A DNA stretch of 64,000 nucleotides from assembly GCF_054482595.1 (NCBI RefSeq), contig NZ_CM137008.1; one strand, 5' to 3'. The notes below the pieces were generated by a model, which saw only the letters and a program-made list of their open reading frames with translations, was not told where the DNA came from and searched no databases. The position numbers and the translations under genes are program-made. Shown here piece after piece: positions 1-36,539 of this stretch; the first letter of the stretch is position 1; each line of letters opens with the position of its first letter.

Positions 1-589
1 TGTGATTGACGCTGCCCAGCGTTCGCCTGTCTACAAAATGGCGATGGACTGGAAACTGGCGCTACCGTTGCACCCTGAATACCGCACCCTGCCGATGGTC
101 TGGTACGTTCCTCCGCTGTCACCGATTCAGTCTTACGCTGATGCGGGCGGTTTGCCGAAAAGCGAAGGCGTGCTCCCCGCCATCGAAAGCCTGCGTATTC
201 CGGTGCAATATCTCGCCAATATGTTGAGTGCCGGCGATACCGGTCCGGTACTGCGGGCGCTAAAACGGATGATGGCGATGCGCCACTATATGCGTTCACA
301 AACCGTGGAAGGCGTTACTGATACTCGTGCCATCGACGAAGTAGGCCTGAGCATCGCCCAGGTCGAAGAAATGTATCGCTATCTCGCCATTGCCAACTAT
401 GAAGATCGTTTTGTTATCCCGACCAGCCATCGGGAAATGGCGGGCGATGCCTTCGCTGAACGCAACGGCTGCGGTTTTACCTTTGGCGACGGTTGCCACG
501 GTTCGGACAGTAAATTCAACCTGTTCAACAGTAGCCGTATCGATGCCATCAACATCACCGAAGTGCGCGACAAAGCGGAGGGCGAATAA
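1..589 (+). CDS. narY: Respiratory nitrate reductase 2 beta subunit, C-terminal part only; the 5' end lies upstream of the window
   Basis: ORF 2..589 runs to the window edge; NarH/NarY-like C-terminal sequence; followed by narW and narV homologs with TAATG and ATGA overlaps. Confidence 0.85.
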   Translation, partial: VIDAAQRSPVYKMAMDWKLALPLHPEYRTLPMVWYVPPLSPIQSYADAGGLPKSEGVLPAIESLRIPVQYLANMLSAGDTGPVLRALKRMMAMRHYMRSQTVEGVTDTRAIDEVGLSIAQVEEMYRYLAIANYEDRFVIPTSHREMAGDAFAERNGCGFTFGDGCHGSDSKFNLFNSSRIDAINITEVRDKAEGE

Positions 590-1284
590 TGCAGATCCTC
601 AAAGTGATCGGCCTGTTGATGGAGTATCCGGACGAGCTGTTGTGGGAATGCAAGGAGGACGCGCTGGCGTTGATCCGCCGCGACGCGCCGATGCTTACGG
701 ATTTCACCCGCAACCTGCTTAACGCGCCGCTGCTGGATAAACAGGCCGAATGGTGCGAAGTGTTTGACCGCGGGCGCACCACGTCGCTGCTGCTGTTCGA
801 ACATGTTCATGCCGAGTCCCGCGATCGCGGCCAGGCAATGGTGGACCTGCTGGCGGAGTATGAAAAGGTCGGCCTGCAGCTGGATTGTCGGGAACTGCCC
901 GATTATCTACCGCTGTATCTGGAGTATTTAAGCGTACTGCCTGACGATCAGGCGAAAAAAGGATTGCTCAATGTTGCGCCGATCCTCGCCCTGCTTGGCG
1001 GTCGCTTAAAACAACGCGAGGCACCGTGGTACGCGTTGTTTGATGCTCTGCTGCAACTGGCGGGAAGTACACTTTCAAGTGACAGTGTCACAAAACAAGT
1101 AAACAGCGAAGAGCGCGATGACACCCGCCAGGCGCTTGATGCAGTGTGGGAAGAGGAACAGGTGAAGTTTATTGAAGATAACGCCACGGCGTGTGACAGC
1201 TCGCCGCTTAATCAATATCAGCGACGCTTTAGCCAGGATGTCGCGCCGCAGTATGTCGACATCAGTGCGGGAGGTGAGAAATGA
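589..1284 (+). CDS. narW: Nitrate reductase 2 assembly chaperone (NarJ family)
   Basis: 231-aa ORF; start overlaps narY stop; position between beta and gamma subunit genes. Confidence 0.85.
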
Positions 1285-1961
1285 TTCAGTATCTGAACGT
1301 CTTTTTTTACGATATCTACCCGTACATTTGTGCGACGGTGTTTTTCCTCGGCAGCTGGCTGCGCTACGACTACGGGCAGTACACCTGGCGCGCCTCCTCA
1401 AGTCAAATGCTCGATAAACGCGGGATGGTGATATGGTCGAATCTGTTCCATATTGGCATTTTGGGGATTTTCTTCGGGCACCTGTTCGGCATGTTAACGC
1501 CGCACTGGATGTACGCGTGGTTTTTGCCGGTGGCAGCGAAACAACTAATGGCGATGGTGCTCGGAGGCATTTGCGGTGTGTTGACGTTGATTGGTGGCGC
1601 AGGACTGCTGTGGCGCAGGCTGACAAATCAGCGCGTGCGTGCCACTTCCACTACGCCGGATATCATCATCATGAGCATTTTGCTGGTCCAGTGTCTGTTG
1701 GGGCTAAGCACCATACCGTTTTCAGCACAGTATCCTGATGGTAGCGAAATGATGAAGCTGGTGGGTTGGGCGCAAAGCATTGTCACTTTCCGTGGTGGAT
1801 CGTCAGAGATGCTTAACGGTGTAGCGTTCGTCTTCCGCCTGCATCTGGTGTTGGGAATGACCATCTTCCTGCTCTTCCCGTTCACTAGACTGGTGCATGT
1901 GTGGAGCGCGCCGTTTGAGTACTTTACTCGTCGGTATCAGATTGTGCGTTCGCGGCGATAA
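1281..1961 (+). CDS. narV: Respiratory nitrate reductase 2 gamma subunit (membrane cytochrome b)
   Basis: 226-aa hydrophobic ORF; ATGA overlap with narW; NarI-like. Confidence 0.85.
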
Positions 1962-2040
1962 TTTTCACCCTGGCCGGATAGCCCTTCGCTCTCCGGCCAC
2001 TTGCAGGCTATGATAGTTCTCCAGTCACAGGAGAACGTTA

Positions 2041-2934
2041 ATGAAACCGCAGATTTACCACGTCGATGCTTTTACCTCTCAACCATTTCGCGGCAATTCT
2101 GCCGGTGTTGTTTTCCCCGCCGATAATCTTAGCGAAGCGCAAATGCAGCTTATCGCCCGCGAATTAGGTCATTCGGAAACTGCTTTTCTGCTGCACAGCG
2201 ACGACAGCGATGTGCGCATCCGCTACTTTACGCCAACGGTTGAAGTTCCGATTTGTGGTCACGCGACAGTAGCTGCGCACTATGTACGTGCGAAGGTGTT
2301 AGGTTTAGGAAATTGCACGGTCTGGCAAACATCGCTGGCAGGAAAACATCGCGTGACTATCGAAAAGCACCACGATGATTATCGTATTTCGCTGGAACAA
2401 GGTACGCCGGGCTTTGAGCCACCGCTGGAAGATGAAACACGTGCGGCGATTATCAACGCGCTTCATCTCACTGAGGACGATATTCTGCCAGGCTTGCCAA
2501 TTCAGGTGGCAACAACAGGACACTCAAAAGTGATGATCCCGTTGAAACCAGAAGTGGATATCGACGCCCTTTCGCCTGATCTTGCTGCGCTGAGCGCTAT
2601 CAGCAAACAGATTGGCTGCAATGGTTTCTTCCCGTTCCAGATCCGCCCAGGCAAAAACGAAACCGATGGTCGCATGTTCTCGCCTGCGATTGGTATTGTG
2701 GAAGATCCGGTGACTGGCAATGCCAATGGCCCGATGGGTGCATGGTTGGTACATCACAACGTATTGCCCCACGATGGCAAGGTGCTGCGTGTTAAAGGCC
2801 ATCAGGGGCGCGCATTGGGGCGTGACGGCGTGATTGAAGTGACGGTGACAATTCGTGATAACCAACCGGAAAAAGTCACCATTTCTGGCGCGGCGGTGAT
2901 TTTGTTTCATGCCGAATGGGCAATTAAACTCTGA
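2041..2934 (+). CDS. yddE: PhzF-family isomerase-like protein
   Basis: 297-aa ORF; synteny downstream of narV. Confidence 0.8.
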   Translation: MKPQIYHVDAFTSQPFRGNSAGVVFPADNLSEAQMQLIARELGHSETAFLLHSDDSDVRIRYFTPTVEVPICGHATVAAHYVRAKVLGLGNCTVWQTSLAGKHRVTIEKHHDDYRISLEQGTPGFEPPLEDETRAAIINALHLTEDDILPGLPIQVATTGHSKVMIPLKPEVDIDALSPDLAALSAISKQIGCNGFFPFQIRPGKNETDGRMFSPAIGIVEDPVTGNANGPMGAWLVHHNVLPHDGKVLRVKGHQGRALGRDGVIEVTVTIRDNQPEKVTISGAAVILFHAEWAIKL

Positions 2935-2941
2935 AACCGTT

Positions 2942-3017
2942 GCCTGATGCGCTTCGCTTATCAGGTCTACAACCGAGCTAATGTATGCCGGATAAGGCGT
3001 TTACGCCGCATCCGGCA
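2942..3017. repeat. Two REP-type palindromic units (BIME-like) in the convergent yddE/nhoA gap
   Basis: gcctgatgcgcttcgcttatcaggtctac and gccggataaggcgtttacgccgcatccggca, typical enterobacterial REP palindromes; the overlapping + ORF 2947..3204 is spurious. Confidence 0.6.
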
Positions 3018-3029
3018 ACCTGACATAAA

Positions 3030-3875
3030 TTATTTTCCCGCCTCCGGGTGCGTATCAAACGCCGCCATCACCAGCGCTAACTCATCCACGGTTAAGCCAT
3101 GTTTCGCATCATCCACGCCCAGACCAAACTGTTCTTGCATCACAGCATATAATGACGCCACATCCGGTAGATTTCGCTGCTCCACCGCGTGCCCATTTTC
3201 ATAATGGGTAAAATGAAAATTGGTCAGTGTCAGCTTGCCGCCGTCCGGCAAATGGCGGCACATCAGCAAATGATGGCGAAAATGCGACTGCGGCCAGTGC
3301 GCCGACCAGAAATTGCCCATCACATAATCGCTTTGTTGCTGCTCGCAGAGATCAAAACGGTACATCGACTGCCAATGCTGATGATGATTAAACTGCAACA
3401 CCCAATCATCACCCTCCTGCAACAACCGATACTCTCCGTGTGGCGTGGTCTGCACGAGATCGGGAACTAAACGAATCGGCGCGGTTAGCGTCTGCCCACC
3501 GAAACCGACATCAGCAATCCATTTTTCCCCTTCCAGTTCCACCAACAGCAAACGATGGGTGCGCGGCGGTAATGCTGGCGGATTTGATAACACTACCCGC
3601 CCTAACAAGCTGCGAACGTTAAACCCCAGCTCGCGTAACACCCGCTCAAACACGCCATTCTGCTCAAAACAGTAACCGCCACGACGGGCTATCACCAGTT
3701 TCTCTTCCAGCGATTGATCATCAAGCTGTATTTCCCTCGGCAGCAAAACGTCGAGGTTTTCAAACGGAATGGTGCAATTGTGTTTCAGGTGCAATGCACG
3801 AAGCGTATCAATATTGACCGCAGCAGCTCCCGACCAGTTAATACGGGCAAAATAGTGATTCAGAATGGGCGTCAT
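3030..3875 (-). CDS. nhoA: Arylamine N-acetyltransferase (N-hydroxyarylamine O-acetyltransferase)
   Basis: 281-aa ORF; NAT-family sequence; synteny. Confidence 0.85.
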   Translation of the reverse strand: MTPILNHYFARINWSGAAAVNIDTLRALHLKHNCTIPFENLDVLLPREIQLDDQSLEEKLVIARRGGYCFEQNGVFERVLRELGFNVRSLLGRVVLSNPPALPPRTHRLLLVELEGEKWIADVGFGGQTLTAPIRLVPDLVQTTPHGEYRLLQEGDDWVLQFNHHQHWQSMYRFDLCEQQQSDYVMGNFWSAHWPQSHFRHHLLMCRHLPDGGKLTLTNFHFTHYENGHAVEQRNLPDVASLYAVMQEQFGLGVDDAKHGLTVDELALVMAAFDTHPEAGK

Positions 3876-4047
3876 CAGGCGTTTCCCTTAGTGGTTTTCT
3901 CAACTTATAACCTGGAATAGACGCCGCACCGGCTATTTTGTGCGATCGCGGACATGCATCACGTTCGCAAATCGCCAATCCCGTTAATTTCGTTACTTAT
4001 TGCGTTACGGACTACGCTTAAAAAAACCTTCTTCGCGAGGCGATACC

Positions 4048-4617
4048 ATGAGCCGATTCATCCCCATAGAATTACACCATGCCAGCCGTCTGTTAAATCA
4101 TGGCCCAACTGTCTTGATCACCAGTTTCGATGAGCAATCCCAGCGGCGTAACATTATGGCTGCAGCCTGGTCAATGCCGGTGGAGTTTGAACCTCCACGC
4201 GTGGCGATTGTGGTAGATAAATCGACATGGACCAGGGAGTTGATTGAACATAACGGTAAATTTGGCATCGTTATCCCGGGCGTTGCAGCAACTAACTGGA
4301 CGTGGGCAGTGGGAAGTGTATCTGGGCGTGAAGAAGATAAATTTAATTGCTACGGCATTCCGGTGGTGAAAGGTCCGGTGCTTGGTTTGCCACTTGTTGA
4401 AGAGAAATGCCTGGCGTGGATGGAGTGCCGCCTGCTACCTGCGACTTCTGCGCAACAAAAATACGACACGCTGTTTGGCGAGGTGGTATCAGCAGCGGCA
4501 GACGCACGGGTATTTGTCGAAGGCCGCTGGCAGTTTGATGATGATAAGCTCAATACGTTGCATCATTTAGGTGCTGGCACGTTTGTTACCAGCGGCAAGC
4601 GAGTTACGGCGGGTTAA
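4048..4617 (+). CDS. yddH: Flavin reductase-like protein
   Basis: ORF 4000..4617; start placed at the internal Met (MSRFIPIELHH) to give about 189 aa. Confidence 0.75.
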   Translation: MSRFIPIELHHASRLLNHGPTVLITSFDEQSQRRNIMAAAWSMPVEFEPPRVAIVVDKSTWTRELIEHNGKFGIVIPGVAATNWTWAVGSVSGREEDKFNCYGIPVVKGPVLGLPLVEEKCLAWMECRLLPATSAQQKYDTLFGEVVSAAADARVFVEGRWQFDDDKLNTLHHLGAGTFVTSGKRVTAG

Positions 4618-4620
4618 GCA

Positions 4621-4848
4621 TTACATGCTGTAACCGGGTTTCTTTATCAAAGCCTCCATTTGGGGCGCGATTTCGGCATCCCAGATAGCTTGCCATGATT
4701 CTGGTTGAATCTGCTGTAGAGAAATGCTTATCGAGCTATCTTTACTGTTCAGATGGCGAATAATAACGTCGGTAATATCTGCAGCAAGTGCTGCTTTTTG
4801 TTGTTCGTCCAGTTCACGCGGAAAACATTTAATGTCGATGTGCGGCAT
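4621..4848 (-). CDS. pptA: 4-oxalocrotonate tautomerase-family protein
   Basis: Start placed at MPHIDIK within ORF 4621..4962; N-terminal Pro1 after Met is typical of the tautomerase superfamily. Confidence 0.75.
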
Positions 4849-5283
4849 GATTACGCTCCTTTTGAAAGATGTCAGTAAAATTAACACACATTGTGAATGT
4901 CGTATGTCCGGTGATGCGTTTTTACGACAATAATGCCTGCTTGAAATTGTAGATATTTGCACTACACCCTTTTAAATAAAGCACCAACAAATCGTCAACT
5001 TGCAGAACATATTCTTCTGCCTACATACCATTAAGAAAACATCAAGTTCCCGACTTGCCAATTTATTAACGCCCATTATAGACGCTGAAACAAGCTACGG
5101 ACAAAGGAGATGCCAAAATTACCGGCAATGCAGAAAAACTCAACGAACCATGGCTCTTTACCACAGCAGCCGGGGTTGTTTGGGACCGACTTCCGACAGC
5201 AGATCCCGGTGGGCCTGCCACCATCTCTTCACAAGTTTATGCTTATTACATGCAAAACGTCCCGTTTTGCATCTTTGTGCCTA

Positions 5284-5400
5284 CGGCACACCGTGATCTT
5301 TCCCTGGTCCCTGTCCCGGATTGTAGTACCGGTGCCAGTTGTAGTGCAGTTCGGATTCGTCGTCATACTGCTAGCCCGGATGGCGGAGCAGTTGCTCTAG
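5284..5400 (-). pseudogene. Decayed fragment of an Rhs core end (orphan rhs remnant), interrupted by stops
   Basis: Minus-strand translation gives ...QYDDESELHYNWHRYYNPGQG..., resembling the Rhs core terminus [12 protein letters not shown]; stop codons on both sides; no intact downstream ORF. Confidence 0.5.
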
Positions 5401-5442
5401 TCACTCAGAATATTGTAATAGTGATAGAGTGCAGTGCCGGTT

Positions 5443-5856
5443 TCAATATCCTAACGCTGGTCTTTTGCCTGTATTAACTGATTTAGCTGGTTTGCTACAT
5501 ATTAATGCCTTCAGATTTTCCCTTTCCTTGTCTGTGATACTGTCACAAACCCTACTAGCCCATTCTACTTCACTCTTCTCCAGGCATTCTATTTTCTTAT
5601 TGCTCATTGTTCTAATGTTTGGTGTTGCATCTCCATTTAATAACATCCATGTTTCATTTTTCTTCATAAAACATCTTCCATTATGTTCAAAGATATTAGG
5701 TGTGAATATATTATCAGAATCCCATGTTACGACTTGCTCGAGGGCTATATTATCTTGATAGTCCATGCCAGCATTATAATAATCACAAGATATAATTATC
5801 ATGGAAATAATTATCATGGAAATAATTATCACTAATATCTTCCCAAGCATTTCCAT
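5443..5856 (-). CDS. Putative Rhs immunity protein, predicted lipoprotein
   Basis: 137-aa ORF whose ATG directly abuts the rhs stop codon; AT-rich; N-terminal hydrophobic segment ending in a lipobox-like IISC with Asp at +2. Confidence 0.55.
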   Translation of the reverse strand: MEMLGKILVIIISMIIISMIIISCDYYNAGMDYQDNIALEQVVTWDSDNIFTPNIFEHNGRCFMKKNETWMLLNGDATPNIRTMSNKKIECLEKSEVEWASRVCDSITDKERENLKALICSKPAKSVNTGKRPALGY

Positions 5857-8800
5857 TTACTTTACCTCTTGAAATTCAAATGGGAATCCAGTGAAAGGAC
5901 CTTTAGGCATAATATATCTTTGATATCCATAAAGCTCACCGAGCACTTGTAGGCTTATAGGCGCATTTGTATTCATAGAGGGGTTGTTAAACCCGCACGC
6001 CTCAAAAATCATGTTCGTTCGGCTAAAACAATTATTTAAAACAGGAAGAGGCCCGAGGTTAATAGTTTTTAGTTTTTTATTAAGGTCTATTGCCTTATTC
6101 ATCATACATTGTTCTTCTTCATCTGTTGTATCTATTATCCAAATCCAGGTATCTCTGCGGGATTGTATCTTTTTAAAATAATCAGAGACAGAGGCTCCCA
6201 TCTCATCCCCAGTTCCCGAACTCATTAATCCATATCGATTTGCCGCCGCAGCATGCCCAAAAGGATTATCAGGAACGGGGCCGTTACCTATTATCATAGT
6301 ACTAAGCCCTAATGGATCAACGTGTTGCACTGGATTCAGCGGATATTGGTACAGATTCCATCCCCCCTTCAGCCCTATCGGGTCCTGAGTGATATACCGC
6401 CCCTGCAACGGATCGTAGTACCGGTTCCGGTTGTAGTACAGCCCCGACTCCTTATCATACTGCTGCCCCGGCAGCCGGTACGGCTGGTGCAGGTGATGCG
6501 GGTTCTCCTCATTAAGCTGGTTGCCCCATTCATCATACTCCGCGCTCCACGCCGTATTGCCGTCTTCACTGATAAGCGCCAGCGGCAGGCCCCGGTGGTC
6601 GCAGTGGTAAAGATGAACTTTTCTCGCCGGTGTGTATTCCGGCTCCATCTGTCTGGCCAGTTGCTCCACCGTCAGCCCGCACTGCGCAAGCCACGCCCGG
6701 CTTTCACTGCTCACGCGGTCTGCCCGGATTTCTTCCTCCAGTCTGTCCAGCAGCCGCACCAGTTCAGCCGGAAATACCACGCCGTGCCCGTCCTCGCTCC
6801 CTTCCTGCTGCATCTTCTCCGCCAGGCTGCGGCGCTGCGCTTTCTCCCGCTCGCCGTTCTCTGTCTCGCCCCGGATGAGCGGCGTGAAGCTTCCCGGCTC
6901 GTATACCGTCTGGATACGTGTGGTGTCAGTCTGCACCGTCGTCAGCCTGTCGCCGTCCCACCCGTACCATGTCTCCTCCGGTTTACGCGACAGCGACATC
7001 CATCCCGTCAGGTCACGCCCGCGACGCCACACCCGTTTCGCCATTCGCCGTCCCAGCGGGTCGTAGAGGTAGCAGCTCTCGACCAGTGGCTCGCCATGCT
7101 GTATCCGCGTGTAGAACACCAGGCGGTGCTGGCTGTCGTAGTGATAGTGGTGGGTGCGCTCGTCGTGCATCCGGATAACCCCTTCCGGGATACGGTCCGT
7201 CTTCTCCGCCAGCCTGCCGTATTCATCGTAGCGGTAGACATAGTGCGCATCTTCCGCGATGCGGTTATCCGGCCACGCCGTGAAGGTGCTGTCCGGGTGC
7301 AGTTCCGGGTCCGGCAGCCGGTTTCCTGCCGGGTCCGTCGCATACGGGATATCGATATCCAGGTTCGCTGCCGTGGTGTGGACGCCCGTCAGCCTTCCCG
7401 TGCCGCTGTAACGGTACTCCCGGCTCTCCTGCGGGCCGCTGATGCGGATTAGCTGTCCGTTGTCGTTCCAGTCGTAGTCATGGTCAAGCTGCGGAAGGTT
7501 CAGGTGCCTGCTCCGGAGCTGGCCGCTGGTATTCCAGGCGGTGGCAAGTTCATATGCCTCCCCGCCGAAGCTGCGGGCCGTCTCACGGTGCAGCCGGTCC
7601 CGCGTGTACTCGACCAGCGGCGTTCCGCCCAGCTTCATCCCCGCAAGATAACCGCTGCCATACGTCAGCCACTCCACCCGCGGCAGGCTGTCCGGCGTGA
7701 CGCGGTTTGCCAGACCCTGTTCGTTGTATGCGTGCTCTGTCTCATGCTGCCACAGCAGTTCCCCCGTCTCCGGGTTATGCACCGTCTGGCGTTCGCCGGC
7801 CAGGCGACCCTTATCATCATAACCGTAATGCACCGCCACCTGATGGCCTTCGCTCAGGTGGCTGATGTCTGTCAGCCAGCCGTGGCCGTCATACTGCCAC
7901 TGCTCTGCCGGTTCACCGTTCACCGTGCGGTGAGTGATACGGTCCGATTCGTCGTAGTGCCAGAGGGTGACAAGTCCCTCATCCTCACTCTGTGTGAGTT
8001 TTCCGGTCAGGTCATAATGATAACGCTGCGTCCGCCCGTCAAAGCCGCCCTGCTGTACCAGGCGGTCCAGCGCATCGTAGCTGAAGTCGCTGTGACTGCC
8101 GTTCTCGTTGGTCAGGCTGATGACACGTCCGGCAGCATCGTACTCCATACTGCGCGTCAGCCCGCCCTGCGTGGTGCTGACCGCCTTTCCCCACGCATCG
8201 TACTGTGTCTCGCTCCGGTTGCCGTCCGGGGTGATAACGGCAGTCAGGTCGCCTGCGGCGTTGTATTCATACCGCGTTTCACGGCCCTGTGCGTCTTTCA
8301 CCGAGGTTAACCGGCCACGGTTGTCATAGCGGCGGTAAAGGCTGATGCCTTCCTCGCGGTGGACCGCCGTCATCTGGCCGAAGCGGTCGTATTCATAGCG
8401 GGTCTGGTAGCCCGAGCAGTCGGTGAACGCCAGCAACTGACCGTAGCGGCTCCACGTCATCTGCCGGGTGCTGCCCGTCGCATCTGTTGTCGTGGCCGGT
8501 AATTCACTGTGCGCATCATCATAGCGGTAGCGTACTGTCTCCCCGCTGCGCGATGTCTCCGTTACCAGCCTGTCCAGTTCATCATATGCCCGGCGGCTCT
8601 CCAGCCCGTCCGGGGACACCACCGCCGTCAGCTGGTTCCCGTCGTTATAGTAAAATTTCGTCTCCCGCCCGTCCGGTGTGGTGATGTCCGTGATATCGCC
8701 GGACACCACATTCAGACCGTACTCTGTCCGCCGTCCCGCCGCGTCCGTCTGCGCCGTGAGCCTTCCTGCCGCGTCATACCCGCTGTGCGTGACGCTGCCA

Positions 8801-10062
8801 TCCGCCAGTTCTTTTTTCACCACCCGTTTCAGCCCGCCTTCACCTTCTGTATGCAGCACCTCACGCCGGTTCAGGCTGTCGGTGACGGTGATGCGGTCCT
8901 GCTCATACTGGTAGCGGTAACTCAGGCCTGCCGGGTTAAGCTGCTCCACCACCCGCCCGGTATCGTCGTAGCGGTAGCGCATCTCCGGCCTTCCCGCATA
9001 ACGGTGCCCCACCATCCGGCCCGGGTGCTGCGCGTCATACGTGAAAGCGCGCACCTGTGTCCCGCTGCGGTCATATACCGCCAGCAGTTCACCGGCTTCC
9101 GTATACGTGTACCGCGCCAGTGGCGCTCCGGGCAGGCTCTCCGGGTATGCCGGGTCGTGCATCAGCCACACCGCCAAAAGGCGGATACCCCTGTCGGGGC
9201 CGTATTCGGTACCGGGCAGTGTGTCGGGGAACGCTGAGGCTGAGAGAGGGCGGGAACGGTCAGAAGAAGATAGCGAAGAGGTGCGGGCCTCTTCCGCACG
9301 CTGCGCCTGCGTGGTCAGCACCAGACGGAACTCCCGCCCGGCACCGTCCGTCACGCCGGTGATTTCCCCGGCCAGGTCACCGGCGGCCTCACGCCGGTAC
9401 GTCAGCGTCCGCCCGAAGCGGTCCGCCATCCCGGTAAGCACCCGGTACGGCGGCAGCGGCGCTGGCAGTACGTCCTCAGCACCCGGCACCCGCTCAGACC
9501 ACCCCAGTATCCACCACGGCCCCTGTGCGCTGTTGGTCGCCAGGTAAAGATGCGGGCTTAACCGGATATCCGGCGGCAGCGACGCCCACAGCCGTGCCAG
9601 CGTATGGCCGTCCGGCTGCGTTGCCTTACCGCCACGCACCAGCCACAGGGACTCGCTGCGGCTGTACACCGCCTCACCCGGCAGCAGCGGCTCAAAGTGA
9701 ATGCTCCGTCCGCCGTTGTCGTTGAGTACCAGTGCATCATCGCGTAGCTGTAAGCGGATATCAGAAGGCGCTTTCCAGCCGGGGCCAAAAATCCCCACCG
9801 GTGCAGGCGTCTTCGTCCGGTAGCTGCTGTAGGTGCGGGAGAGAATGAACGGCAGCGGGCCGGGCAGCGCAAGGTCCGTCTCGCCGGGCAGCACCTTCGC
9901 CCCCAGTAGCGGGTTTACCGGGTTAGAATAGGTGATACCGCCCGGACACACCGAGCACGCCACACCGGTCGGCGCGCCTATCAGTACCCCCGCTGACCCC
10001 TGGACTATCGGACCGCCGTACTGGGTCATATCTCCCTGGCGTGCCGCTGGTTTTCCGCTCAT
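5857..10062 (-). CDS. rhs: Rhs-family polymorphic toxin with N-terminal PAAR-like domain, YD-repeat core and variable C-terminal toxin tip
   Basis: 1401-aa ORF; N-terminus [11 protein letters not shown]...; many YD repeats; core terminus PxxxxDPLGL near 6305 followed by a roughly 148-aa AT-rich tip. Confidence 0.9.
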
Positions 10063-10129
10063 GATTCAAATTCCTTCTTCTGTTTATTTTTAATGCTGGT
10101 TTGTTACTGAATACCGAACAGGTACGGGA

Positions 10130-12238
10130 TCAGTACTCTCTCATATCCGGCGTATCCTGCTTTTCATCAGGTGTCTTCGGTGGGGATTTCGAGGCTGCAC
10201 AGTTCAAGTTAATCAACAGTGAGTCACCATTAACCTGCTCCTTACCCTGCAAATGAATTTTTGTGCCGTTGAGAAAAATTTGTCCGTCCTTCGTCAGCAC
10301 CAGCCTTGCCTTACCACAGCAGAGCTCCAGATGCTCCCCGGCAGAGTAAATCGCTGTCTGTCCGGTATCATCCTTCTTCGTTTTACCCACGGTGAAGGTG
10401 ACGTTATTTCCGACTTTAACGTCATATCCTTTCCCCACAAGCAGCGATTTATTTACCCCCACCTGCGAGGACTGCATCAGCGCCACCGAGGTGTTCATAA
10501 TGCCACCTACCGTCGTCTGATACGCCACGCCCACGGTCAGCGCACGAACAAGTCCAATCGTTTCCACCTGAACAGAACCCACTTTAATTATCTGGTTACT
10601 GCCCACCGTCTCTATCTGGTTAACACCCACCGTCTGTATCTGATTGTTGGTAACCGCAATCATCTGATTGTTGCCAATGGTTTCAGCATGGTTGTTTATC
10701 ACATCCGTGGTGCGGTTATTCAGCACCTCGGTGTTCATGTTCTTCTGCGCGTGGATGTAGACCTGTTCTTTCCCTGTCGCATCGTCAAACTTCAGTTCAT
10801 TAAACCCGCTGCCCTTATAGGTTTTCGAACGAATGGTCATCTGCGTCTTCGTCCCCGGCAGGCTGCCGGGGGTGCGGTTTTCCTGGTGGTAGGTACGCCC
10901 CATAATAATCGGCTGGTCCGGATCGCCGTTGAGGAAGTCCACAATCACCTCCTGACCCACACGCGGTATCGCCAGGTTGCCAAAGCCGGTGCCTGCCCAC
11001 GCCTGTGCCACACGGATCCAGCATGAACTGTCCTGGTTTGACGGGTTATAGCGGTCCCAGTTAAATTTCACCCGCACGCGGCCATGTTCATCACAGAAGA
11101 TTTCCTCGCCTGCCGGTCCCGTCACGACGGCGCTCTGCGGGCCGTCCACCATCGGTTTCAGCAACGGCTGTGGCCGCCATGTCCGGTCTGCCGGGATTAC
11201 CGCAAAGTGGTTATTCAGCGTGGTACCTGAACCACTGCGTCCCGGCACCGCCTGCGGCTGCTCGCCGTGCAGTTCACTTGCCACCACCTGCCATTCCCGG
11301 TTCAGGTTCGCCTGCGGATGCCCCGTCAGCGCAATTCGCCGTCCCGGCCATATCTCCGGAGAACGGCTTGTTCCGCGCGCCACTTCTGCGTTGTTTCGCC
11401 AGCCATCCATCTGCCAGCGGGCAAAGTTCTGCCCGTGGGCACCCTTGAAACGTCCGGGGTAGTCATACACTTCATACTGTGTGCGCTGGTAATCCTGGTA
11501 CTGGCCTTCCTGATCAAAACGCCCTGCCCAGCCGGGTCGTTTAAAGGTGTAGTCTTTGGTCACCACGGAAGAAGGGCGGATTTGTGCGCTGTAGCGAAAC
11601 TGGCTGATGCATAGGGTGCTCACCTCGGTACGGGTGTTCGGGTTCCAGGGGATCTCAAAGGACTCCGGCAGATAACGCACGGTGTCGCACAGGACCAGGC
11701 TCTGGTCGATACTTTTTTGCGCGTGCTCCTCATAAAAGAAGATGCCTTCCTCCGCCGCCATCCGGCACAGGAAATCGTAATCGGTTTCGCCGTACTGGAC
11801 ACAAAACTCACGGGAAGGATGTGGCTCGCTGAACAGCGGGCTCCACTCGGTAACCCCGTTTTCCTGCAATATCGTGCCGAGGATGCTTTCGATGTCCTCA
11901 TTCTGGAAGATACGGAAGTTCTGGCGCAGCCCTGTGCGCCACAGCGGTGGGCACACCTTCATGCTGTACAGCATCTGGTTTTTGTCGTTCTCCCCCAGTT
12001 CAAACCAGGTCACCATACCTTTCACCCGGCGCTGTACGTCATCGCCCTGCCATACCGTCAGGTAGGCCATTTTGTCCAGCACCTGCGCAAATTCAAGGGA
12101 AAGAAACTGCTGACTGACCAGAGAAAGGTCGAGGGAAAAAAGTGAAGAGAGTGACTGGGAGAGGTGAAAGGAAACCACCGCAAAAGCATCCGGTGGCAGG
12201 CCGTCCACTTCAAGTGTGAAACGTAATCCGGTTGACAT
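10130..12238 (-). CDS. vgrG: Type VI secretion spike protein VgrG
   Basis: ORF 10130..12274; start placed at MSTGLRFTLEVDGLPPDAF with a ggagg SD just upstream; gp27/gp5-like sequence with C-terminal Val/Gly-rich repeats. Confidence 0.85.
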   Translation of the reverse strand: MSTGLRFTLEVDGLPPDAFAVVSFHLSQSLSSLFSLDLSLVSQQFLSLEFAQVLDKMAYLTVWQGDDVQRRVKGMVTWFELGENDKNQMLYSMKVCPPLWRTGLRQNFRIFQNEDIESILGTILQENGVTEWSPLFSEPHPSREFCVQYGETDYDFLCRMAAEEGIFFYEEHAQKSIDQSLVLCDTVRYLPESFEIPWNPNTRTEVSTLCISQFRYSAQIRPSSVVTKDYTFKRPGWAGRFDQEGQYQDYQRTQYEVYDYPGRFKGAHGQNFARWQMDGWRNNAEVARGTSRSPEIWPGRRIALTGHPQANLNREWQVVASELHGEQPQAVPGRSGSGTTLNNHFAVIPADRTWRPQPLLKPMVDGPQSAVVTGPAGEEIFCDEHGRVRVKFNWDRYNPSNQDSSCWIRVAQAWAGTGFGNLAIPRVGQEVIVDFLNGDPDQPIIMGRTYHQENRTPGSLPGTKTQMTIRSKTYKGSGFNELKFDDATGKEQVYIHAQKNMNTEVLNNRTTDVINNHAETIGNNQMIAVTNNQIQTVGVNQIETVGSNQIIKVGSVQVETIGLVRALTVGVAYQTTVGGIMNTSVALMQSSQVGVNKSLLVGKGYDVKVGNNVTFTVGKTKKDDTGQTAIYSAGEHLELCCGKARLVLTKDGQIFLNGTKIHLQGKEQVNGDSLLINLNCAASKSPPKTPDEKQDTPDMREY

Positions 12239-13346
12239 AGCAACCTCCGTGAAAATGAATAATAATCCGCACATATTGCATGTACAACATGTCGGGCGGA
12301 TGAGATAAGCGAGTCGACATCTGGCGTTACCGGGGAATATCAGAAAAATGTCATGGTTATGTGATGATTTAGTCTGGGATTTTACTTCAGAGAAACGGGT
12401 GTCTGTTTAGTCAACAAAATAATCACAAACGCAACGGATGGGTTCTCGACGTTATTCACGACAGGCTCGTACATTACAGCGAGTAATAAAAAACCCGATA
12501 TGCAAAGTCAAACCAATATTCATAATGTCTTTTTATTCACAACAATAAATAATTTAATAACAATCATTGAAATGAATGATGATTTGTATAAGGAATATAC
12601 GCTACCGCCCCACCCTGATAACATGATCTGCACATTGCCATCTTAACGTCGTTAAACACTGGCTTAATAGTGGATATTTCAAATTAGGAATTTATTAAAT
12701 TCACCTGATGAATATCATAAGCAAATAGCATAGAAAATAATGACAACTCCCCCGAGGGGACCATTTCCAAAGCACTGCACCACCACCTGGTGCCCGGATG
12801 ATCTTGCTTCAGTGGTAAGAGTACCTGATTCATTGTTCCCAAAATGGTGTTTTCCCCTGCCCCTCCAATAATGTGCAGCTCTCACGTGATAATCTATTGA
12901 TTAGGTTATATTAAGAATCAATATTTAAAATACATCCATTTTCTTGAATAAATCAACATGTTTATTAATCAATTGCTGTTTTAGCTCTGACTCATCAAGC
13001 TCTCCATATTTGTCCTACAGATAATTGCGAATAAATACAGAGAACGCCATTTATCCTTTTAGCATACCTGCCGGATATTTTTATTTGTATTAATATTAAT
13101 TGCATCTCCAACTCCGAGCATATCCATCATTAAAAAAATTTTGAGATTATAGAATACCTGTGATAACAAGTGAAACATCTGCACAATGTGAATAGTTAGT
13201 TTCTTTTCAGAGGAAATGAAATAGACACGCTGAATGAAAGGGAGAGTGATATAAATTAAAAAACATAACGTGAATTTAATTAATTACGCCCATCATTGTG
13301 GATAAAGTTACTGAATAATAAATAACATAATCTTCTGGTATCCCAC

Positions 13347-13964
13347 TCAAATAATTTCATTCCTTTTTAGTATTTCTTGTAACGTTGGTAACTGACATAC
13401 AGCATCAGCAATCGCACTGATATTCGTGGCATTATCCTGAAACCATTCATGCCCAGGCCCCCATGTGCGCATAGTGCAAAGATAACAGTCCACCAGCGTT
13501 AGTTGCTCACCAAACGCATAAGGTTCAGCGGTCAATTGTGAATTCAGCCAGATATAAAGCGATTTACGATATTCAATAACATTCTTCTTTAACTGTTCGG
13601 GTGCGTCAGGAGCCCAACGCTCAGGGTAATCGGCGAAAGTGAATGTTGGATAGACATTAGCAACCAGCCAGACCAATAGCCGTTGAAACTGCTGACGTTC
13701 GGCGCGCCCAACCGGTGGCGCAAGGTCCGGGCGACGATCGAGAACCATCAATGCAATCGCCGCTGTCTCCGTCATAATCTCGTCATTTTCCAATGCCAGT
13801 GTCGGAACCTGACACAACGGGTTCAGGGTTTTCAATAACTCGCGTGAAGCTCCCTCGTGGTCAAAACCACTGACATCAACGAACTGATAAGGAATATCAG
13901 CCAGTGTTAGCATCAGCTCACTGATTGTAGAGCCCCATCCGGGTACGCCATACACCTTAATCAT
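13347..13964 (-). CDS. yncG: Glutathione S-transferase homolog
   Basis: 205-aa ORF; GST-like N-terminal thioredoxin fold; synteny next to ansP. Confidence 0.8.
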   Translation of the reverse strand: MIKVYGVPGWGSTISELMLTLADIPYQFVDVSGFDHEGASRELLKTLNPLCQVPTLALENDEIMTETAAIALMVLDRRPDLAPPVGRAERQQFQRLLVWLVANVYPTFTFADYPERWAPDAPEQLKKNVIEYRKSLYIWLNSQLTAEPYAFGEQLTLVDCYLCTMRTWGPGHEWFQDNATNISAIADAVCQLPTLQEILKRNEII

Positions 13965-14230
13965 ATGCCCCTCACAATCTTTTAAAGATTAAGTGTAGGA
14001 CAGTACACAGGTTAACCAGCAAAAGGATTTGTCATTTTTTCGTCAGTTGTATTAATCCCCTTCAGGATTGTAAGGGGATGTTTTGCATCGTTTATCGATA
14101 ACGGGTAGGATGCTGCGCCGATAGTTTTATACCCATAAAGAATAATGGTGATAACTATCATCGCCAGGATGAATAAACATTGTTCATGGCAACTTATATG
14201 ACTTTTTCATTAAAGCAATCAGGGAGAGCA

Positions 14231-15730
14231 ATGAGTAAACACGACACCGACACTTCAGATCAACACGCCGCGAAACGCCGCTGGCTTAATGCCCACGAAG
14301 AGGGGTATCACAAAGCGATGGGCAATCGCCAGGTACAGATGATCGCCATTGGCGGCGCGATTGGCACCGGCTTGTTTTTAGGTGCAGGAGCCCGACTGCA
14401 AATGGCGGGTCCAGCACTGGCACTGGTTTATTTAATTTGTGGCTTGTTTTCGTTTTTTATTCTGCGTGCATTGGGTGAGCTGGTGCTACACCGCCCTTCC
14501 AGTGGCAGTTTTGTCTCTTATGCCCGTGAGTTTTTGGGTGAGAAAGCCGCTTATGTTGCTGGCTGGATGTACTTCATCAACTGGGCGATGACGGGGATTG
14601 TTGATATTACCGCCGTCGCTCTGTATATGCATTACTGGGGTGCGTTTGGCGGCGTGCCGCAGTGGGTCTTTGCGCTCGCTGCACTTACCATCGTTGGCAC
14701 CATGAATATGATCGGTGTGAAATGGTTTGCGGAGATGGAGTTCTGGTTTGCGCTTATTAAAGTGCTCGCCATTGTGACCTTTTTGGTCGTGGGTACAGTG
14801 TTCCTCGGTAGTGGTCAGCCGCTGGATGGCAACACCACTGGCTTTCATTTAATCACCGATAATGGCGGCTTCTTCCCCCACGGTTTGCTGCCTGCGCTGG
14901 TGTTGATTCAGGGCGTAGTGTTTGCTTTTGCCTCCATTGAAATGGTGGGTACAGCTGCCGGAGAATGTAAAGATCCGCAGACCATGGTGCCTAAAGCGAT
15001 TAACAGTGTGATTTGGCGTATTGGCCTGTTTTACGTCGGCTCCGTGGTGTTGCTGGTTATGTTATTGCCGTGGAGCGCGTATCAGGCGGGGCAAAGTCCG
15101 TTCGTGACGTTTTTCTCTAAACTGGGTGTGCCATATATCGGCAGCATTATGAACATTGTGGTGCTGACCGCTGCCCTCTCCAGCCTGAATTCAGGTCTGT
15201 ACTGCACCGGACGTATTCTGCGCTCAATGGCGATGGGCGGTTCCGCACCGAGTTTTATGGCGAAAATGAGTCGTCAGCATGTACCGTATGCCGGGATTCT
15301 GGCGACACTGGTTGTGTATGTCGTCGGCGTATTCCTCAACTATCTGGTGCCGTCGCGCGTATTTGAGATTGTGTTGAACTTCGCGTCGCTGGGAATCATC
15401 GCTTCATGGGCGTTTATCATCGTGTGCCAGATGCGCCTGCGTAAAGCGATTAAAGAAGGCAAAGCAGCGGATGTCAGTTTTAAACTGCCTGGCGCGCCCT
15501 TCACTTCCTGGCTGACATTACTGTTTTTACTGAGTGTCCTTGTGCTGATGGCGTTCGATTACCCGAACGGGACTTATACTATCGCGGCGCTGCCGATTAT
15601 CGGTATTCTGCTGGTTATAGGCTGGTTTGGTGTGCGCAAACGCGTTGCCGAAATTCACAGCACTGCGCCAGTCGTCGAGGAAGATGAAGAAAAACAGGAA
15701 ATTGTGTTTAAGCCTGAAACGGCGAGTTAA
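14231..15730 (+). CDS. ansP: L-asparagine permease (APC-family amino acid transporter)
   Basis: ORF 14180..15730; start placed at MSKHDTDTSDQ to give 499 aa; multi-pass membrane protein. Confidence 0.85.
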   Translation: MSKHDTDTSDQHAAKRRWLNAHEEGYHKAMGNRQVQMIAIGGAIGTGLFLGAGARLQMAGPALALVYLICGLFSFFILRALGELVLHRPSSGSFVSYAREFLGEKAAYVAGWMYFINWAMTGIVDITAVALYMHYWGAFGGVPQWVFALAALTIVGTMNMIGVKWFAEMEFWFALIKVLAIVTFLVVGTVFLGSGQPLDGNTTGFHLITDNGGFFPHGLLPALVLIQGVVFAFASIEMVGTAAGECKDPQTMVPKAINSVIWRIGLFYVGSVVLLVMLLPWSAYQAGQSPFVTFFSKLGVPYIGSIMNIVVLTAALSSLNSGLYCTGRILRSMAMGGSAPSFMAKMSRQHVPYAGILATLVVYVVGVFLNYLVPSRVFEIVLNFASLGIIASWAFIIVCQMRLRKAIKEGKAADVSFKLPGAPFTSWLTLLFLLSVLVLMAFDYPNGTYTIAALPIIGILLVIGWFGVRKRVAEIHSTAPVVEEDEEKQEIVFKPETAS

Positions 15731-15735
15731 TTGCA

Positions 15736-15764
15736 AAGTTGCCCGGCTACGTGCCGGGCAACTT
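15736..15764. terminator. Hairpin in the convergent ansP/yncE gap, probable bidirectional terminator
   Basis: aagttgcccggc-tacgt-gccgggcaactt, a perfect 12-bp stem. Confidence 0.5.
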
Positions 15765-15842
15765 CAAATTACTGACGAAGGTGCCGGATACGGCGTGATC
15801 AAAGTCAGGCAAGTCTCTCCGTTATCACCCTCGCCATGTCTA

Positions 15843-16904
15843 TTACAGCGCAATACGAATCACATCGTCTGGCTGGGTAGCTTCCTGCTGTTTAGTGGAT
15901 TTTTGTTTCACACTGACATACAGCGTTTTGCCATCGGCAGACAGCGCCAGGCTGTTTGGATGAGTCGGCGTATCGAACGTTTTCACCACTTTATAGCTTT
16001 TCGCGTCAATCACACTGACTTTACCTGCCTGACGATGCGTTACGTAGGCTTCATTACGCGCTGAGTTAAACAGTACAGCCAGTGATTCCGGTGCCGCAAC
16101 CTTCGCCAGAATATTGCCATTACGGGTATCGACCACTAACACTTCTGCGGCTTTAGAATCGGTGATAAATGCACGCTGCCTGGCGGTATCAAGGCTAATG
16201 TTGATAAAGAAGTGCTCTTTGCCGTCATCCAGCAGCTTTTTACGGCTGAGGATTTTATTGTCGGCGGTGTCGATGGTAATCAATTCGCCGTCAGCGTTAG
16301 TGGTGTAAAGACGTTTGCCTTTGCTATCCAGCGCCAGACCGGTACTCATTTTACCGGTGTTCTGGATGGCGGTTTTCAGTTTGATATTCTCGCCATCAAC
16401 GACCCAAATCACGCTCTCTTTACCAATACCACTGATGTAAACGGTGTTCGTGGCATCATCAGCTACCAGCTCACGCGGTTGCAGCGGGCGCACCTCTTCC
16501 GTGCGCTTACGATCATCCAGCACCAGACGGCCTTTCACTTCGCCCGTTTTGGCATCTATCGCCGTGACCGCGCTGTTTACGGTGTTACCAAACCACAACG
16601 TCTGAGTCGTGTTATTGATGGTGGCACCAAACGGCTTGAGATCGTTATGGATCGCCTGCGTCACTTCCAGAGTGACCGGATCAAGACGATAAACCACGCC
16701 ACCTTTATCCAGTTTGCGGCTTTGCGAAGTGGCGAGCCACAGCGCGTTTTCTTGCTGGCTATAAGCCATTTCGTAGGCACCTTTACCTACCGCTTTACGC
16801 AGCATTTCTTCTGCGGCCTGCGTACTGAATGATGAAGCAACAAGCAATGAACCTAACAGTAATGAACCACGCAGGCGCAATGAAAACAGATGACGTAAAT
16901 GCAT
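15843..16904 (-). CDS. yncE: Secreted beta-propeller protein YncE
   Basis: 353-aa ORF with signal peptide; synteny. Confidence 0.85.
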   Translation of the reverse strand: MHLRHLFSLRLRGSLLLGSLLVASSFSTQAAEEMLRKAVGKGAYEMAYSQQENALWLATSQSRKLDKGGVVYRLDPVTLEVTQAIHNDLKPFGATINNTTQTLWFGNTVNSAVTAIDAKTGEVKGRLVLDDRKRTEEVRPLQPRELVADDATNTVYISGIGKESVIWVVDGENIKLKTAIQNTGKMSTGLALDSKGKRLYTTNADGELITIDTADNKILSRKKLLDDGKEHFFINISLDTARQRAFITDSKAAEVLVVDTRNGNILAKVAAPESLAVLFNSARNEAYVTHRQAGKVSVIDAKSYKVVKTFDTPTHPNSLALSADGKTLYVSVKQKSTKQQEATQPDDVIRIAL

Positions 16905-16990
16905 GACGACTCCCTTTGATGAACCGATATTTTTGCTGCTTCACAATGCTTCGCTAAGCGTAATCATCGTTACGCTCTTGTTATAAATGG

Positions 16991-17009
16991 GAATGGTAAT
17001 CATTATTTT
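16991..17009. promoter_or_regulatory. Candidate Fur box in the divergent yncE/yncD promoter region
   Basis: gaatggtaatcattatttt resembles the Fur consensus gataatgataatcattatc; lies between an iron-receptor gene and yncE. Confidence 0.4.
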
Positions 17010-17145
17010 CTCAAATGTGGAGCATTTCTTGCCGTTACGACTACAATTTTCTCAATTACTTAACGTATTGTGCCGTTTCATTTTCCATAAATTTACAATT
17101 TCATTACCATGACGGCGTTTTCCCATTCTTAACCTGGCTTTTTTC

Positions 17146-19248: not shown

Positions 19249-19256
19249 TTACCTTG

Positions 19257-19278
19257 ATGCCCGGTATTTTCCGGGCAT
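19257..19278. terminator. Hairpin in the convergent yncD/mcbR gap
   Basis: atgcccgg-tatttt-ccgggcat, an 8-bp stem followed by T-rich sequence. Confidence 0.5.
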
Positions 19279-19283
19279 TTACT

Positions 19284-19949
19284 TTAACGATTGTATTGCT
19301 GGTATAAAATAGCAATATTTTGTTGCATAATTTCAGCAAGACAATGTTTGCATCCCTCTTTGTCTTTTGCTTTTAACGCGGCGAGTAATAGACGATAGTT
19401 TTCTATACGCTCCCGTAATTCCGCTGGATTAATCTCTTCATAGAGATAATGTAAACCAGGTCCCATCCTGACCCACAGTTGTTCAATCATCTCACACAGG
19501 ATGGGCATATTTGAGCGATGATAAATCGCTAAGCGAAATAGCCTGTTTACATTAATGATTTGTTCCATGTCGCCCTTTTCTTGCGCCTGCTGTAATTTCT
19601 CGAGCAATTCCTGGAGTTCCGCCAGGTCTTGGGGGGTGAGGTGTTCAACAGCCAGAGCAACTGCCATTAATTCCAGTTCGTAGCGGATCCGATTGATTTC
19701 GTCTAATTGACGTTTCCCCACTTCCGGAACTGTAAATGCTTGCGCTGGTGCGACAGAAAGCGCATTCACCGAAACCAGACGTAATAATGCTTCACGCACA
19801 GGTGTAATACTCATACCTAATTGCTCCGCCAGATTTTTAGTAATCAGGCGTGCGCCAGGTTTTAGTGCGCCAATACTAAGCTGATGTTTCAGGTCGTTCT
19901 CAACCTGCAGAGTCAAACTGACATGTTTCATTTTTCCCGTTCCAGGCAT
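19284..19949 (-). CDS. mcbR: GntR-family transcriptional regulator (colanic acid/biofilm regulator)
   Basis: ORF 19284..20006; start placed at MPGTGKMKHV for about 221 aa; N-terminal winged HTH. Confidence 0.8.
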   Translation of the reverse strand: MPGTGKMKHVSLTLQVENDLKHQLSIGALKPGARLITKNLAEQLGMSITPVREALLRLVSVNALSVAPAQAFTVPEVGKRQLDEINRIRYELELMAVALAVEHLTPQDLAELQELLEKLQQAQEKGDMEQIINVNRLFRLAIYHRSNMPILCEMIEQLWVRMGPGLHYLYEEINPAELRERIENYRLLLAALKAKDKEGCKHCLAEIMQQNIAILYQQYNR

Positions 19950-30286: not shown

Positions 30287-30703
<417 letters not shown>

Positions 30704-30748
30704 AATTTCGACTGTCTCTCGCATGTCATTAACCTTTTTAATTGGCGA

Positions 30749-36532: not shown

Positions 36533-36539
36533 AGGTCAA

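Follow-up and report, generated by a model that had tools for sequence, protein, structure and literature searches.

The vgrG-rhs-immunity module described here is already known as such, since E. coli often carries intact vgrE-rhsE islands. Of 5426 complete E. coli genomes, 2195 (~40%) have a module of intact length at the rhsE site, the annotation of O157 Sakai calls the spike gene 'vgrE', the NCBIfam model TIGR01646 carries the name vgr_GE, and EHEC papers describe vgrE/rhsE as an orphan vgrG island (PMC7216683, PMC12981562). The Sakai island shares with ours its site (yncH ... pptA), the gene order, the Rhs core family, the N-terminus and a downstream remnant (see also PMC7216683, PMC12981562). 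Its tip, however, is glycine-rich and its immunity protein is another lipoprotein; that the O157 RhsE tip is the same toxin is thus ruled out. K-12 differs in having a RhsE-CT/YdcD pair behind a 5' deletion.

Two further groups of described systems are relevant. The Rhs effectors RhsA (7Q97), Tse5 (8CP6) and Tre23 (7PQ5) share with our Rhs the YD-repeat cocoon, the DUF6531 cap and the C-terminal DPxGL autoproteolysis motif. Their PAAR domain is complete and often accompanied by prePAAR, TM helices and an EagR chaperone. In our Rhs, by contrast, there is a single PAAR repeat, aa 1-330 contain no TM segment, and the 67-nt vgrG-rhs gap has no eagR gene. On the toxin side there are Tox-Act1/Imm-Act1, a Salmonella SPI-6 T6SS effector pair (PLoS Biol 2026, PMC12994826), and TseH/TsiH of Vibrio cholerae (PDB 6V98). 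Our cassette is ordinary apart from an unannotated cysteine-hydrolase tip and a stop codon in the firing machinery of the clone. What is new here is the immunity protein as a predicted lipoprotein, the location of the T6SS with its tssH/clpV lesion, and the single-repeat PAAR. We think it quite likely that the intact RhsE element is an auxiliary ('orphan') T6SS effector island with a phospholipase-like tip and a lipoprotein immunity, whose delivery is impaired. The data show that the genes are intact, that VgrG and Rhs belong to their families, what K-12 has deleted, where the T6SS lies and how it is damaged, and the tip's fold with its conserved residues; its substrate and compartment, the immunity role and the loss of delivery are inferred.

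The cassette lies in a window, i.e. the whole analysed stretch of DNA, of 64,000 nucleotides. Its features are as follows.

12239-13059, minus strand: AT-rich intergenic region (~35% GC) upstream of vgrG, presumed from its composition to be the promoter/regulatory region
10130-12238, minus strand: vgrG (historical name vgrE), 702-aa T6SS spike protein, orphan copy
5857-10062, minus strand: rhs (rhsE allele), 1401-aa Rhs effector, intact
9976-10059, minus strand: single PAAR repeat, Rhs aa 2-29, presumed VgrG-docking element
6304-10062, minus strand: GC-rich Rhs core, aa 1-1253; its last residues are PxxxxDPLGL, the conserved autocleavage motif that demarcates core from tip
5860-6303, minus strand: Rhs C-terminal toxin tip, aa 1254-1401 (148 aa), predicted permuted NlpC/P60 Cys-His hydrolase
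6253-6255, 6220-6222 and 6028-6030, minus strand: candidate catalytic residues His1270, Ser1281 and Cys1345 of the tip
5443-5856, minus strand: putative immunity gene, 137-aa predicted lipoprotein
5792-5831, minus strand: perfect 15-bp tandem repeat, 2.7 copies (TRF), within the immunity signal peptide
5308-5391, minus strand: decayed Rhs core-end remnant (…QYDDESELHYNWHRYYNPGQG…), 3' of the immunity gene, from three-frame translation

A sequence-only reading of this DNA had described a complete cassette of three co-directional minus-strand genes, encoding VgrG (702 aa), Rhs (1401 aa) and a 137-aa protein, with the ATG of the last abutting the rhs stop. The ORF listing with its translations bears this out for 5443-12238, and the junction reads TAAATG, which suggests that the immunity gene is translationally coupled to rhs. 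Both large proteins are full length, because the family models are covered end to end: VgrG matches TIGR03361 with 628.7 bits (cut-off 186) over model positions 1-512 of 513, and Rhs matches RHS_core, NF041261, with 2710.7 bits (cut-off 2000) over positions 1-1261 of 1261. These family assignments lie far above chance. For vgrG a longer ORF of 714 aa (10130-12274) was considered and rejected. The 702-aa start at 12238 is preferred because it has GGAGG 5 nt upstream, gives the N-terminus MSTGLRF as in the paralogue and agrees with the RefSeq annotation. The rhs ATG is preceded by AAGGA. Promoter and terminator scans gave consensus-level matches only, with promoter-like sites at 12621-12594 and 12286-12259.

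The site is the E. coli rhsE locus between pptA and yncH. Positions 1-4937 and 12306-20000 of the window are collinear with K-12 at 98-99% identity. Positions 6332-7851 match the K-12 rhsE pseudogene at 88%, and 7852-12305, comprising the entire vgrG and rhs codons 1 to ~737, are missing from K-12. The statement that K-12 has no vgrG and only a truncated rhsE here therefore proved right: K-12 has a 5'-deleted rhsE, with vgrG missing at the site. Downstream, 29 nt of the remnant match the region around the core end of the intact rhs (90%, E=3e-5). O157 Sakai has the same remnant at its rhsE locus, and it appears to be what is left of an rhs fragment, either displaced or orphan.

The spike protein carries the Pfam domains Phage_GPD, Phage_base_V and Gp5_trimer_C, which make it a member of VgrG/TssI. 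It scores 444 bits against TIGR01646, and VgrG homologues in the PDB match it at E=1e-101 (VgrG1 at E=1e-97). The PAARxGD motif was not found in it. VgrE is 90% identical to the VgrG of the main T6SS cluster, with most differences in the last ~170 aa; it is a paralogue of this aspV-island (T6SS-2) spike protein. Presumably it is the divergent C-terminal end of VgrE that recruits the cognate Rhs, whose short PAAR-type N-terminus would make the contact.

It had been suggested that the module depends on a secretion apparatus encoded elsewhere, as the window was seen to hold no hcp or T6SS core genes. Both points hold: the XH990 record, which is 100% identical to the window, has no such gene annotated there, and the cognate T6SS cluster, a complete one, is found in the aspV island of XH990, at 3.866-3.888 Mb, ~1.35 Mb from the cassette in that genome. 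This Rhs-bearing cluster is the T6SS-2 of the E. coli literature. In it, tssH/clpV is cut short by an amber nonsense codon (TAG for GAG) at residue 273, ahead of its two AAA+ modules, and the gene for VasL carries a frameshift; both lesions are common to the whole clone. Strain D8, a relative with the same tip, has an intact tssH. Single-assembly errors were considered as their cause and rejected: the same DNA is present in 12-14 independent assemblies, and the lesions are flagged in THO-010 too. Therefore an intact cassette is not the same as a deliverable toxin. Of the intact effector module proposed from the sequence, the integrity of the genes stands, whereas deliverability is doubtful. 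Delivery of the toxin is probably crippled or absent in this clone; the cassette is intact but its product is probably delivered poorly or not at all, and what it would still offer is immunity.

One may ask whether the cassette is still an active weapon, through ClpV-independent firing at a reduced rate, amber readthrough, a second T6SS or another export route. Some systems keep a residual activity without ClpV (PMC12981562). The remaining T6SS core genes, the two hcp genes and the two vgrG-rhs pairs are intact, and the three ORFs of the cassette are undamaged. However, the stop in tssH precedes both AAA+ modules, VasL adds a second lesion in the same cluster, and clpV2 mutants served as T6SS2-null strains in E. 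coli Rhs-CT work. The metV island, the only site scanned for a second T6SS, is empty. We regard continued firing as a tentative and rather unlikely alternative to impaired delivery.

The Rhs protein is 76% identical to the Rhs of the main cluster and homologous to the solved T6SS Rhs effectors Tse5, RhsA and Tse15. Pfam finds DUF6531 (from aa 47), at least 12 RHS repeats and PF03527, and TIGR03696 (Rhs_assc_core) spans aa 1176-1253, ending with DPLGL (aa 1249-1253, nt 6304-6318). GC content is 63.4% in the core, 39.4% in the tip and 50.4% in the window. The protein thus has the full YD-repeat core, the PxxxxDPxGL motif and the variable tip of lower G+C that define an RHS element core protein. 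The YD-repeat shell would enclose the 148-aa polymorphic tip, which would be freed after DPLGL. The N-terminus had been called PAAR-like. This is correct as far as one PAAR repeat (aa 2-29) is concerned, but a full PAAR domain (PF05488) has three repeats in one chain (at least 85 aa) and is not present here: Pfam PAAR_motif matches aa 3-28 with E=0.17 only, the phmmer alignment of aa 2-29 to 9rce_c, a PAAR protein of 99 aa, covers only its third repeat (aa 71-98), and the Rhs contains just one PAARxGD motif. We know of no structural explanation so far for the single-repeat 'PAAR' of E. coli Rhs cores. In the literature such an Rhs start is labelled an 'N-terminal PAAR motif' (PMC6730261).

The tip is invisible to profile searches of Pfam and NCBIfam. 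Its family profile, run against PDB sequences, retrieved only spurious protein A repeat matches, and Foldseek of the tip model against the PDB gave no significant match. The family itself has 357 cluster representatives at E<=1e-3, nearly all C-terminal in Rhs/YD proteins. From its model the tip is predicted to have a circularly permuted NlpC/P60 (papain-like) fold with a His1270...Cys1345 dyad, which places it in the group of TseH, Tox-Act1, YiiX, LRAT and Lnb/DUF4105: the fold is papain-like, and the His lies on a beta-strand before the Cys, which is at a helix N-terminus. The best matches are YiiX, 3kw0, RID, DUF4105/Lnb and PLAAT4. Tox-Act1 likewise is a permuted NlpC/P60 protein with His...Cys, kin to DUF4105 and TseH. 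Both it and our tip are missed by standard HMMs, both sit on polymorphic-toxin delivery modules (E. coli Rhs included), and both have a membrane-associated immunity, implying periplasmic action. They differ in His-Cys spacing (75 aa in the tip, 108 in Tox-Act1, compared by description rather than sequence alignment) and in immunity, a lipoprotein here and a multi-TM protein for Tox-Act1. The E. coli example of the Tox-Act1 clade, QMP79959.1, has a Pfam DUF4105 match, unlike our tip. The tip may itself belong to that clade, to which DUF4105-annotated Foldseek matches and an Lnb_N match in 1 of 28 family members point indirectly. TseH is 6% identical to the tip in sequence and is a stand-alone cargo effector (Pfam DUF6695 per PMC12994826), not an Rhs tip. 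Acting from the periplasm, the tip would attack the acyl-ester bonds of phospholipids in the membrane, and a phospholipase A-like activity of this kind would produce lysolipids and membrane damage.

The 137-aa protein has no family in Pfam or NCBIfam. It has the lipobox IISC, with Cys24 at 5785-5787 and Asp at +2, and its KD19 maximum (2.88) is at the N-terminus, so we regard it as a predicted inner-membrane lipoprotein. The lipobox [ITV]-S-C-D does not vary among homologues. Every full-length one also keeps four more cysteines (aa 62, 91, 104, 120), three of which are missing from the C-terminally divergent P0209. The AF2 model (pLDDT 57) was too poor for a fold search. As expected of a T6SS immunity gene, it lies immediately downstream of the tip and is co-inherited with it, being invariably 3' of this tip, Salmonella included (83-84% identity for the pair). 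Kept in the inner membrane by Asp+2, the lipoprotein would neutralise the toxin in sibling cells. When tip and immunity gene were queried as one 858-bp unit, 544 of the 5426 genomes (~10%) had 80% or more of it together at one location. The majority match over 843 bp, as the window allele has one extra repeat copy (IISMI) relative to the common 132-aa allele.

Two more adventurous readings can be mentioned. The tip may found a distinct, database-invisible clade of permuted NlpC/P60 toxins with inner-membrane lipoprotein immunity and a substrate unlike that of Tox-Act1, e.g. lipoprotein acyl chains or a specific phospholipid. Also, the one-repeat PAAR of K-12-type E. coli Rhs may mount on VgrG in a non-canonical way, with three Rhs N-termini per spike or with completion by the divergent VgrG C-terminus. 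Taken jointly, we consider these readings unlikely.

The tip might instead be a cell-wall hydrolase that cuts peptidoglycan peptide stems in the prey periplasm, where the lipoprotein would block it. Canonical NlpC/P60 amidases provide the model, and this was also the first proposal for TseH. But the order His before Cys and all the best matches listed above are those of the permuted branch, in which the members characterised so far have acyl or lipid substrates, and TseH itself displayed phospholipase activity (PMC12994826). We find a cell-wall target quite improbable.

A related suggestion is a Lnb-like acyltransferase or deacylase whose target is the lipid at the N-terminus of envelope lipoproteins. 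In Bacteroides, Lnb is the N-acyltransferase of lipoproteins, Foldseek matches the tip (E=1e-8 to 1e-4) to proteins labelled DUF4105/'Lnb N-terminal periplasmic domain', one of 28 tip family members matches Pfam Lnb_N, and lipoproteins were suggested as possible targets of Tox-Act1 (PMC12994826). However, the tip of the window has no Lnb_N match even at E<=10, and the one toxin of the clade that has been characterised hydrolyses PG and PE, which makes this suggestion very unlikely. Least credible of all is a role chiefly within the producing cell, akin to that of a toxin-antitoxin or addiction element and independent of T6SS delivery: such a role would fit an intact cassette kept beside a damaged T6SS, and PMC7043789 reports Salmonella Rhs elements as type II TA modules, but the toxin fold and the exported lipoprotein immunity indicate a periplasmic site of action, which a tip made in the cytoplasm would not reach without secretion, and the clone is too uniform to reveal selection.

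The tip/immunity pair of ~10% of complete E. coli genomes, until now annotated merely as 'RHS element core protein / hypothetical protein', can be assigned, as a prediction, to the lipid-targeting permuted NlpC/P60 group, and the assignment supplies a testable activity and the predicted catalytic residues His1270 and Cys1345. The T6SS lesions of the clone parallel the T6SS degeneration reported in O157:H7. The clone illustrates an intact-looking arsenal with a broken launcher, and calls for caution when T6SS weaponry is inferred solely from effector genes.

The window is from E. coli, and the three minus-strand ORFs that the sequence-only reading had placed in it were recovered by ORF listing and translation with exactly the same positions and lengths. 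A fragment lies beyond the last of them:
10130-12238, minus strand, vgrG ORF, 702 aa (a longer ORF reaches 12274)
5857-10062, minus strand, rhs ORF, 1401 aa
5443-5856, minus strand, putative immunity ORF, 137 aa
5308-5391, downstream of the immunity gene, decayed Rhs core-end fragment (QYDDESELHYNWHRYYNPGQG, in-frame stops)

The 702-aa start of vgrG is preferred because GGAGG lies 5 nt upstream, its N-terminus, MSTGLRF, is shared with its paralogue, and the RefSeq annotation uses it. From the vgrG stop it is 67 nt to the rhs ATG, ahead of which lies AAGGA. The ATG of the 137-aa ORF does abut the rhs stop; the junction reads TAAATG, which suggests that these two genes are translationally coupled. 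The gaps between the genes are too small to hold an adaptor gene of the eagR/DUF1795 or DUF4123 type. On the other side of vgrG, the interval to yncG (12239-13300) is markedly AT-rich (~35% G+C) and contains the small yncH gene; judging from its composition, this stretch may serve the island as a regulatory region or be silenced.

Profile matches identify the 702-aa product as a VgrG of full length: it scores 628.7 bits against TIGR03361 (512 of 513 positions), also matches TIGR01646 'vgr_GE', carries the Pfam domains Phage_GPD, Phage_base_V and Gp5_trimer_C, and is matched by VgrGs in the PDB at E=1e-101. The same kind of evidence makes the 1401-aa product an E. coli Rhs, likewise of full length: it scores 2710.7 bits against NF041261 RHS_core (cut-off 2000 bits; model positions 1-1261 of 1261), has RHS repeats, PF03527 and a DUF6531 cap, and is homologous to T6SS Rhs effectors of solved structure, namely Tse5, RhsA, Tse15 and Tre23. 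The core ends in DPLGL (aa 1249-1253). Its G+C is 63%, against 39% for the tip and 34% for the gene that follows, which is the classic Rhs core/tip architecture.

The Rhs N-terminus had been described as PAAR-like. This stands for one PAAR repeat and not for a full domain. The likeness is limited to aa 2-29 (window 9976-10059), Pfam PAAR gives only E=0.17, and in a phmmer alignment they pair with the final repeat of the three in a 99-aa PAAR protein. There is one PAARxGD motif in Rhs, and none was found in VgrG. The repeat is followed by CSVC, and the DUF6531 cap starts at aa 47. Since the canonical PAAR cone requires three repeats and at least 85 aa (PMC8651086), the Rhs N-terminus, with a single repeat, falls short of a PAAR domain. 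In the literature the single PAAR motif of Rhs is treated as a VgrG-docking element (PMC6730261). The same N-terminus is present in other E. coli Rhs cores, and the single repeat holds for all K-12-type Rhs cores.

The module occupies the K-12 rhsE site. It is flanked by pptA and yncH, with narZ-narI (narZYWV in K-12) and yddE-nhoA-yddH upstream, and in a BLAST comparison of the window with K-12 these flanks are collinear at 98-99% identity. No K-12 counterpart was found in that comparison for 7852-12305 (the whole of vgrG and rhs codons 1 to ~737), while the rest of the rhs core is 88% identical to the K-12 rhsE pseudogene. The alignment thus bears out the earlier statement that K-12 has no vgrG and only a truncated rhsE here. 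In place of window 4938-6331, the tip and immunity region, K-12 has RhsE-CT, ydcD, yncI and ydcC (ISAs1). The remnant at 5308-5391 is also present in O157 Sakai; it was probably left behind when a tip was displaced earlier, or by an orphan rhs fragment. The 9-kb module region is 100% identical in several complete genomes (XH990, THO-010, SM107, W619, GF66.1 and others). Elsewhere in the window, by the XH990 annotation, a frameshifted hicA toxin gene (mRNA interferase) adjoins an intact hicB antitoxin gene at ~30287-30903 (L003:16287-16903), and in an IS200/IS605 element at ~35324-37046 (L003:21324-23046) the insQ/tnpB (RNA-guided endonuclease family) is intact and the neighbouring tnpA is interrupted by a stop.

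No T6SS core genes or hcp are annotated within the 64 kb, as had been noticed, and the apparatus expected elsewhere was located in XH990, in the aspV (tRNA-Asp) island ~1.35 Mb from the module:
aspV island, full T6SS cluster: hcp x2, tssB, tssC, tssE, tssF, tssG, tagH, tssJ, tssK, tssL, tssH, vasI, tssA, tssM and the VasL gene
XH990 NZ_CP019359 3877592-3880330 (L005:27592-30330), tssH/clpV with a stop codon
L005:36041-37451, frameshifted VasL gene

This system is the T6SS-2 of the E. coli literature (PMC6730261, PMC12981562), and a vgrG-rhs-TPR immunity set belongs to it. The VgrG of that set shares 90% identity with the window VgrG, and most of the substitutions fall within the final ~170 residues. 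Between the two Rhs cores identity is 76%, and their N-terminus is the same. The module is therefore probably an auxiliary spike-effector pair of the aspV-island T6SS. The metV island site, examined for a second T6SS, is empty in XH990. A complete lateral flagella (Flag-2) cluster, of which K-12 retains mere remnants, lies beside the T6SS/aspV region (XH990 3808000-3849400).

The tssH nonsense mutation falls at codon 273 (GASVKG*FEKRF), ahead of both AAA+ modules. Throughout the clone with a 100% match to the window, both this stop and the VasL frameshift are present; tssH is intact in near relatives. Assembly errors can be dismissed, as the 12-14 genomes matching the window at 99.3-100% identity all have one and the same tssH DNA sequence (100% identity), and THO-010 was independently flagged for both lesions. 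In E. coli, clpV2 mutants serve as T6SS2-null controls for Rhs-CT delivery (PMC6730261); in some systems residual activity persists without ClpV (PMC12981562). On this basis, the ability of this clone to deliver its effectors is probably strongly impaired.

What does the tip do? Its 148 residues (aa 1254-1401) match nothing in Pfam or NCBIfam even at E<=10. Rhs tips from E. coli, Salmonella and Hafnia are closely related to it, and a tip profile gives 357 matches at E<=1e-3 among 1.84 billion cluster representatives. Among 170 tip-domain matches in the retrieved relatives (query included), 160 finish at most 70 aa from the protein C-terminus, and a DPxGL-type motif comes before 132 of the 170; the tip is therefore a widespread polymorphic-toxin tip. 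An alignment of 28 sequences (26-60% identity) has the motifs NPFGH and DNCxxRT and invariant N13, G16, H17, G25, S28, G30, R50 and C92. By analogy with LRAT-type enzymes, the role of third polar residue may fall to Ser28, at +11 relative to the His. Foldseek against AFDB50 finds Rhs tips from numerous Proteobacteria and also, at E=1e-8 to 1e-4, proteins annotated 'DUF4105 / Lnb N-terminal periplasmic domain'. Pfam Lnb_N touches one of the 28 family members. Against the PDB there is no significant Foldseek match, which we count as a weakness.

The literature offers a parallel in Tox-Act1, a Salmonella T6SS effector with the same permuted core as the tip; standard HMMs miss it too, and it is a sister group of DUF4105/Lnb with a relationship to TseH (PMC12994826). 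It is a phospholipase acting on PG and PE whose toxicity is confined to the periplasm and requires its His and Cys; a Rhs-fused homologue has been shown in E. coli (PMC12994826). Because of this shared core, we predict that the tip is a periplasm-acting, lipid-directed Cys-His hydrolase.

The 137-aa product has no annotated relatives; its gene occurs with the tip in 566 of 5426 genomes, and also in Salmonella. The N-terminus is strongly hydrophobic (KD19 2.88) and, in the product and its homologues, leads to a lipobox, [I/T/V]-S-C, that is invariant and has Asp in the +2 position, which by the established +2 rule predicts a lipoprotein kept in the inner membrane. Four more cysteines (aa 62, 91, 104 and 120), conserved in all full-length homologues (a C-terminally divergent one, P0209, is without three of them), are typical of an oxidised periplasmic protein. 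Inside the signal peptide, 5792-5831 is a perfect 15-bp tandem repeat of 2.7 copies; this allele has one more repeat (IISMI) than the common one, 137 against 132 aa. Where the tip homologue is distant, the gene downstream likewise specifies a small TM or signal-anchored protein, which agrees with an envelope site of toxin action.

The module is a textbook and frequent E. coli accessory T6SS island, and the earlier finding was real and correctly read. Only three things are new here: an unannotated tip and its immunity partner are placed in the permuted NlpC/P60 toxin group, the PAAR of Rhs is a single repeat, and the T6SS launcher of this clone has inactivating mutations.
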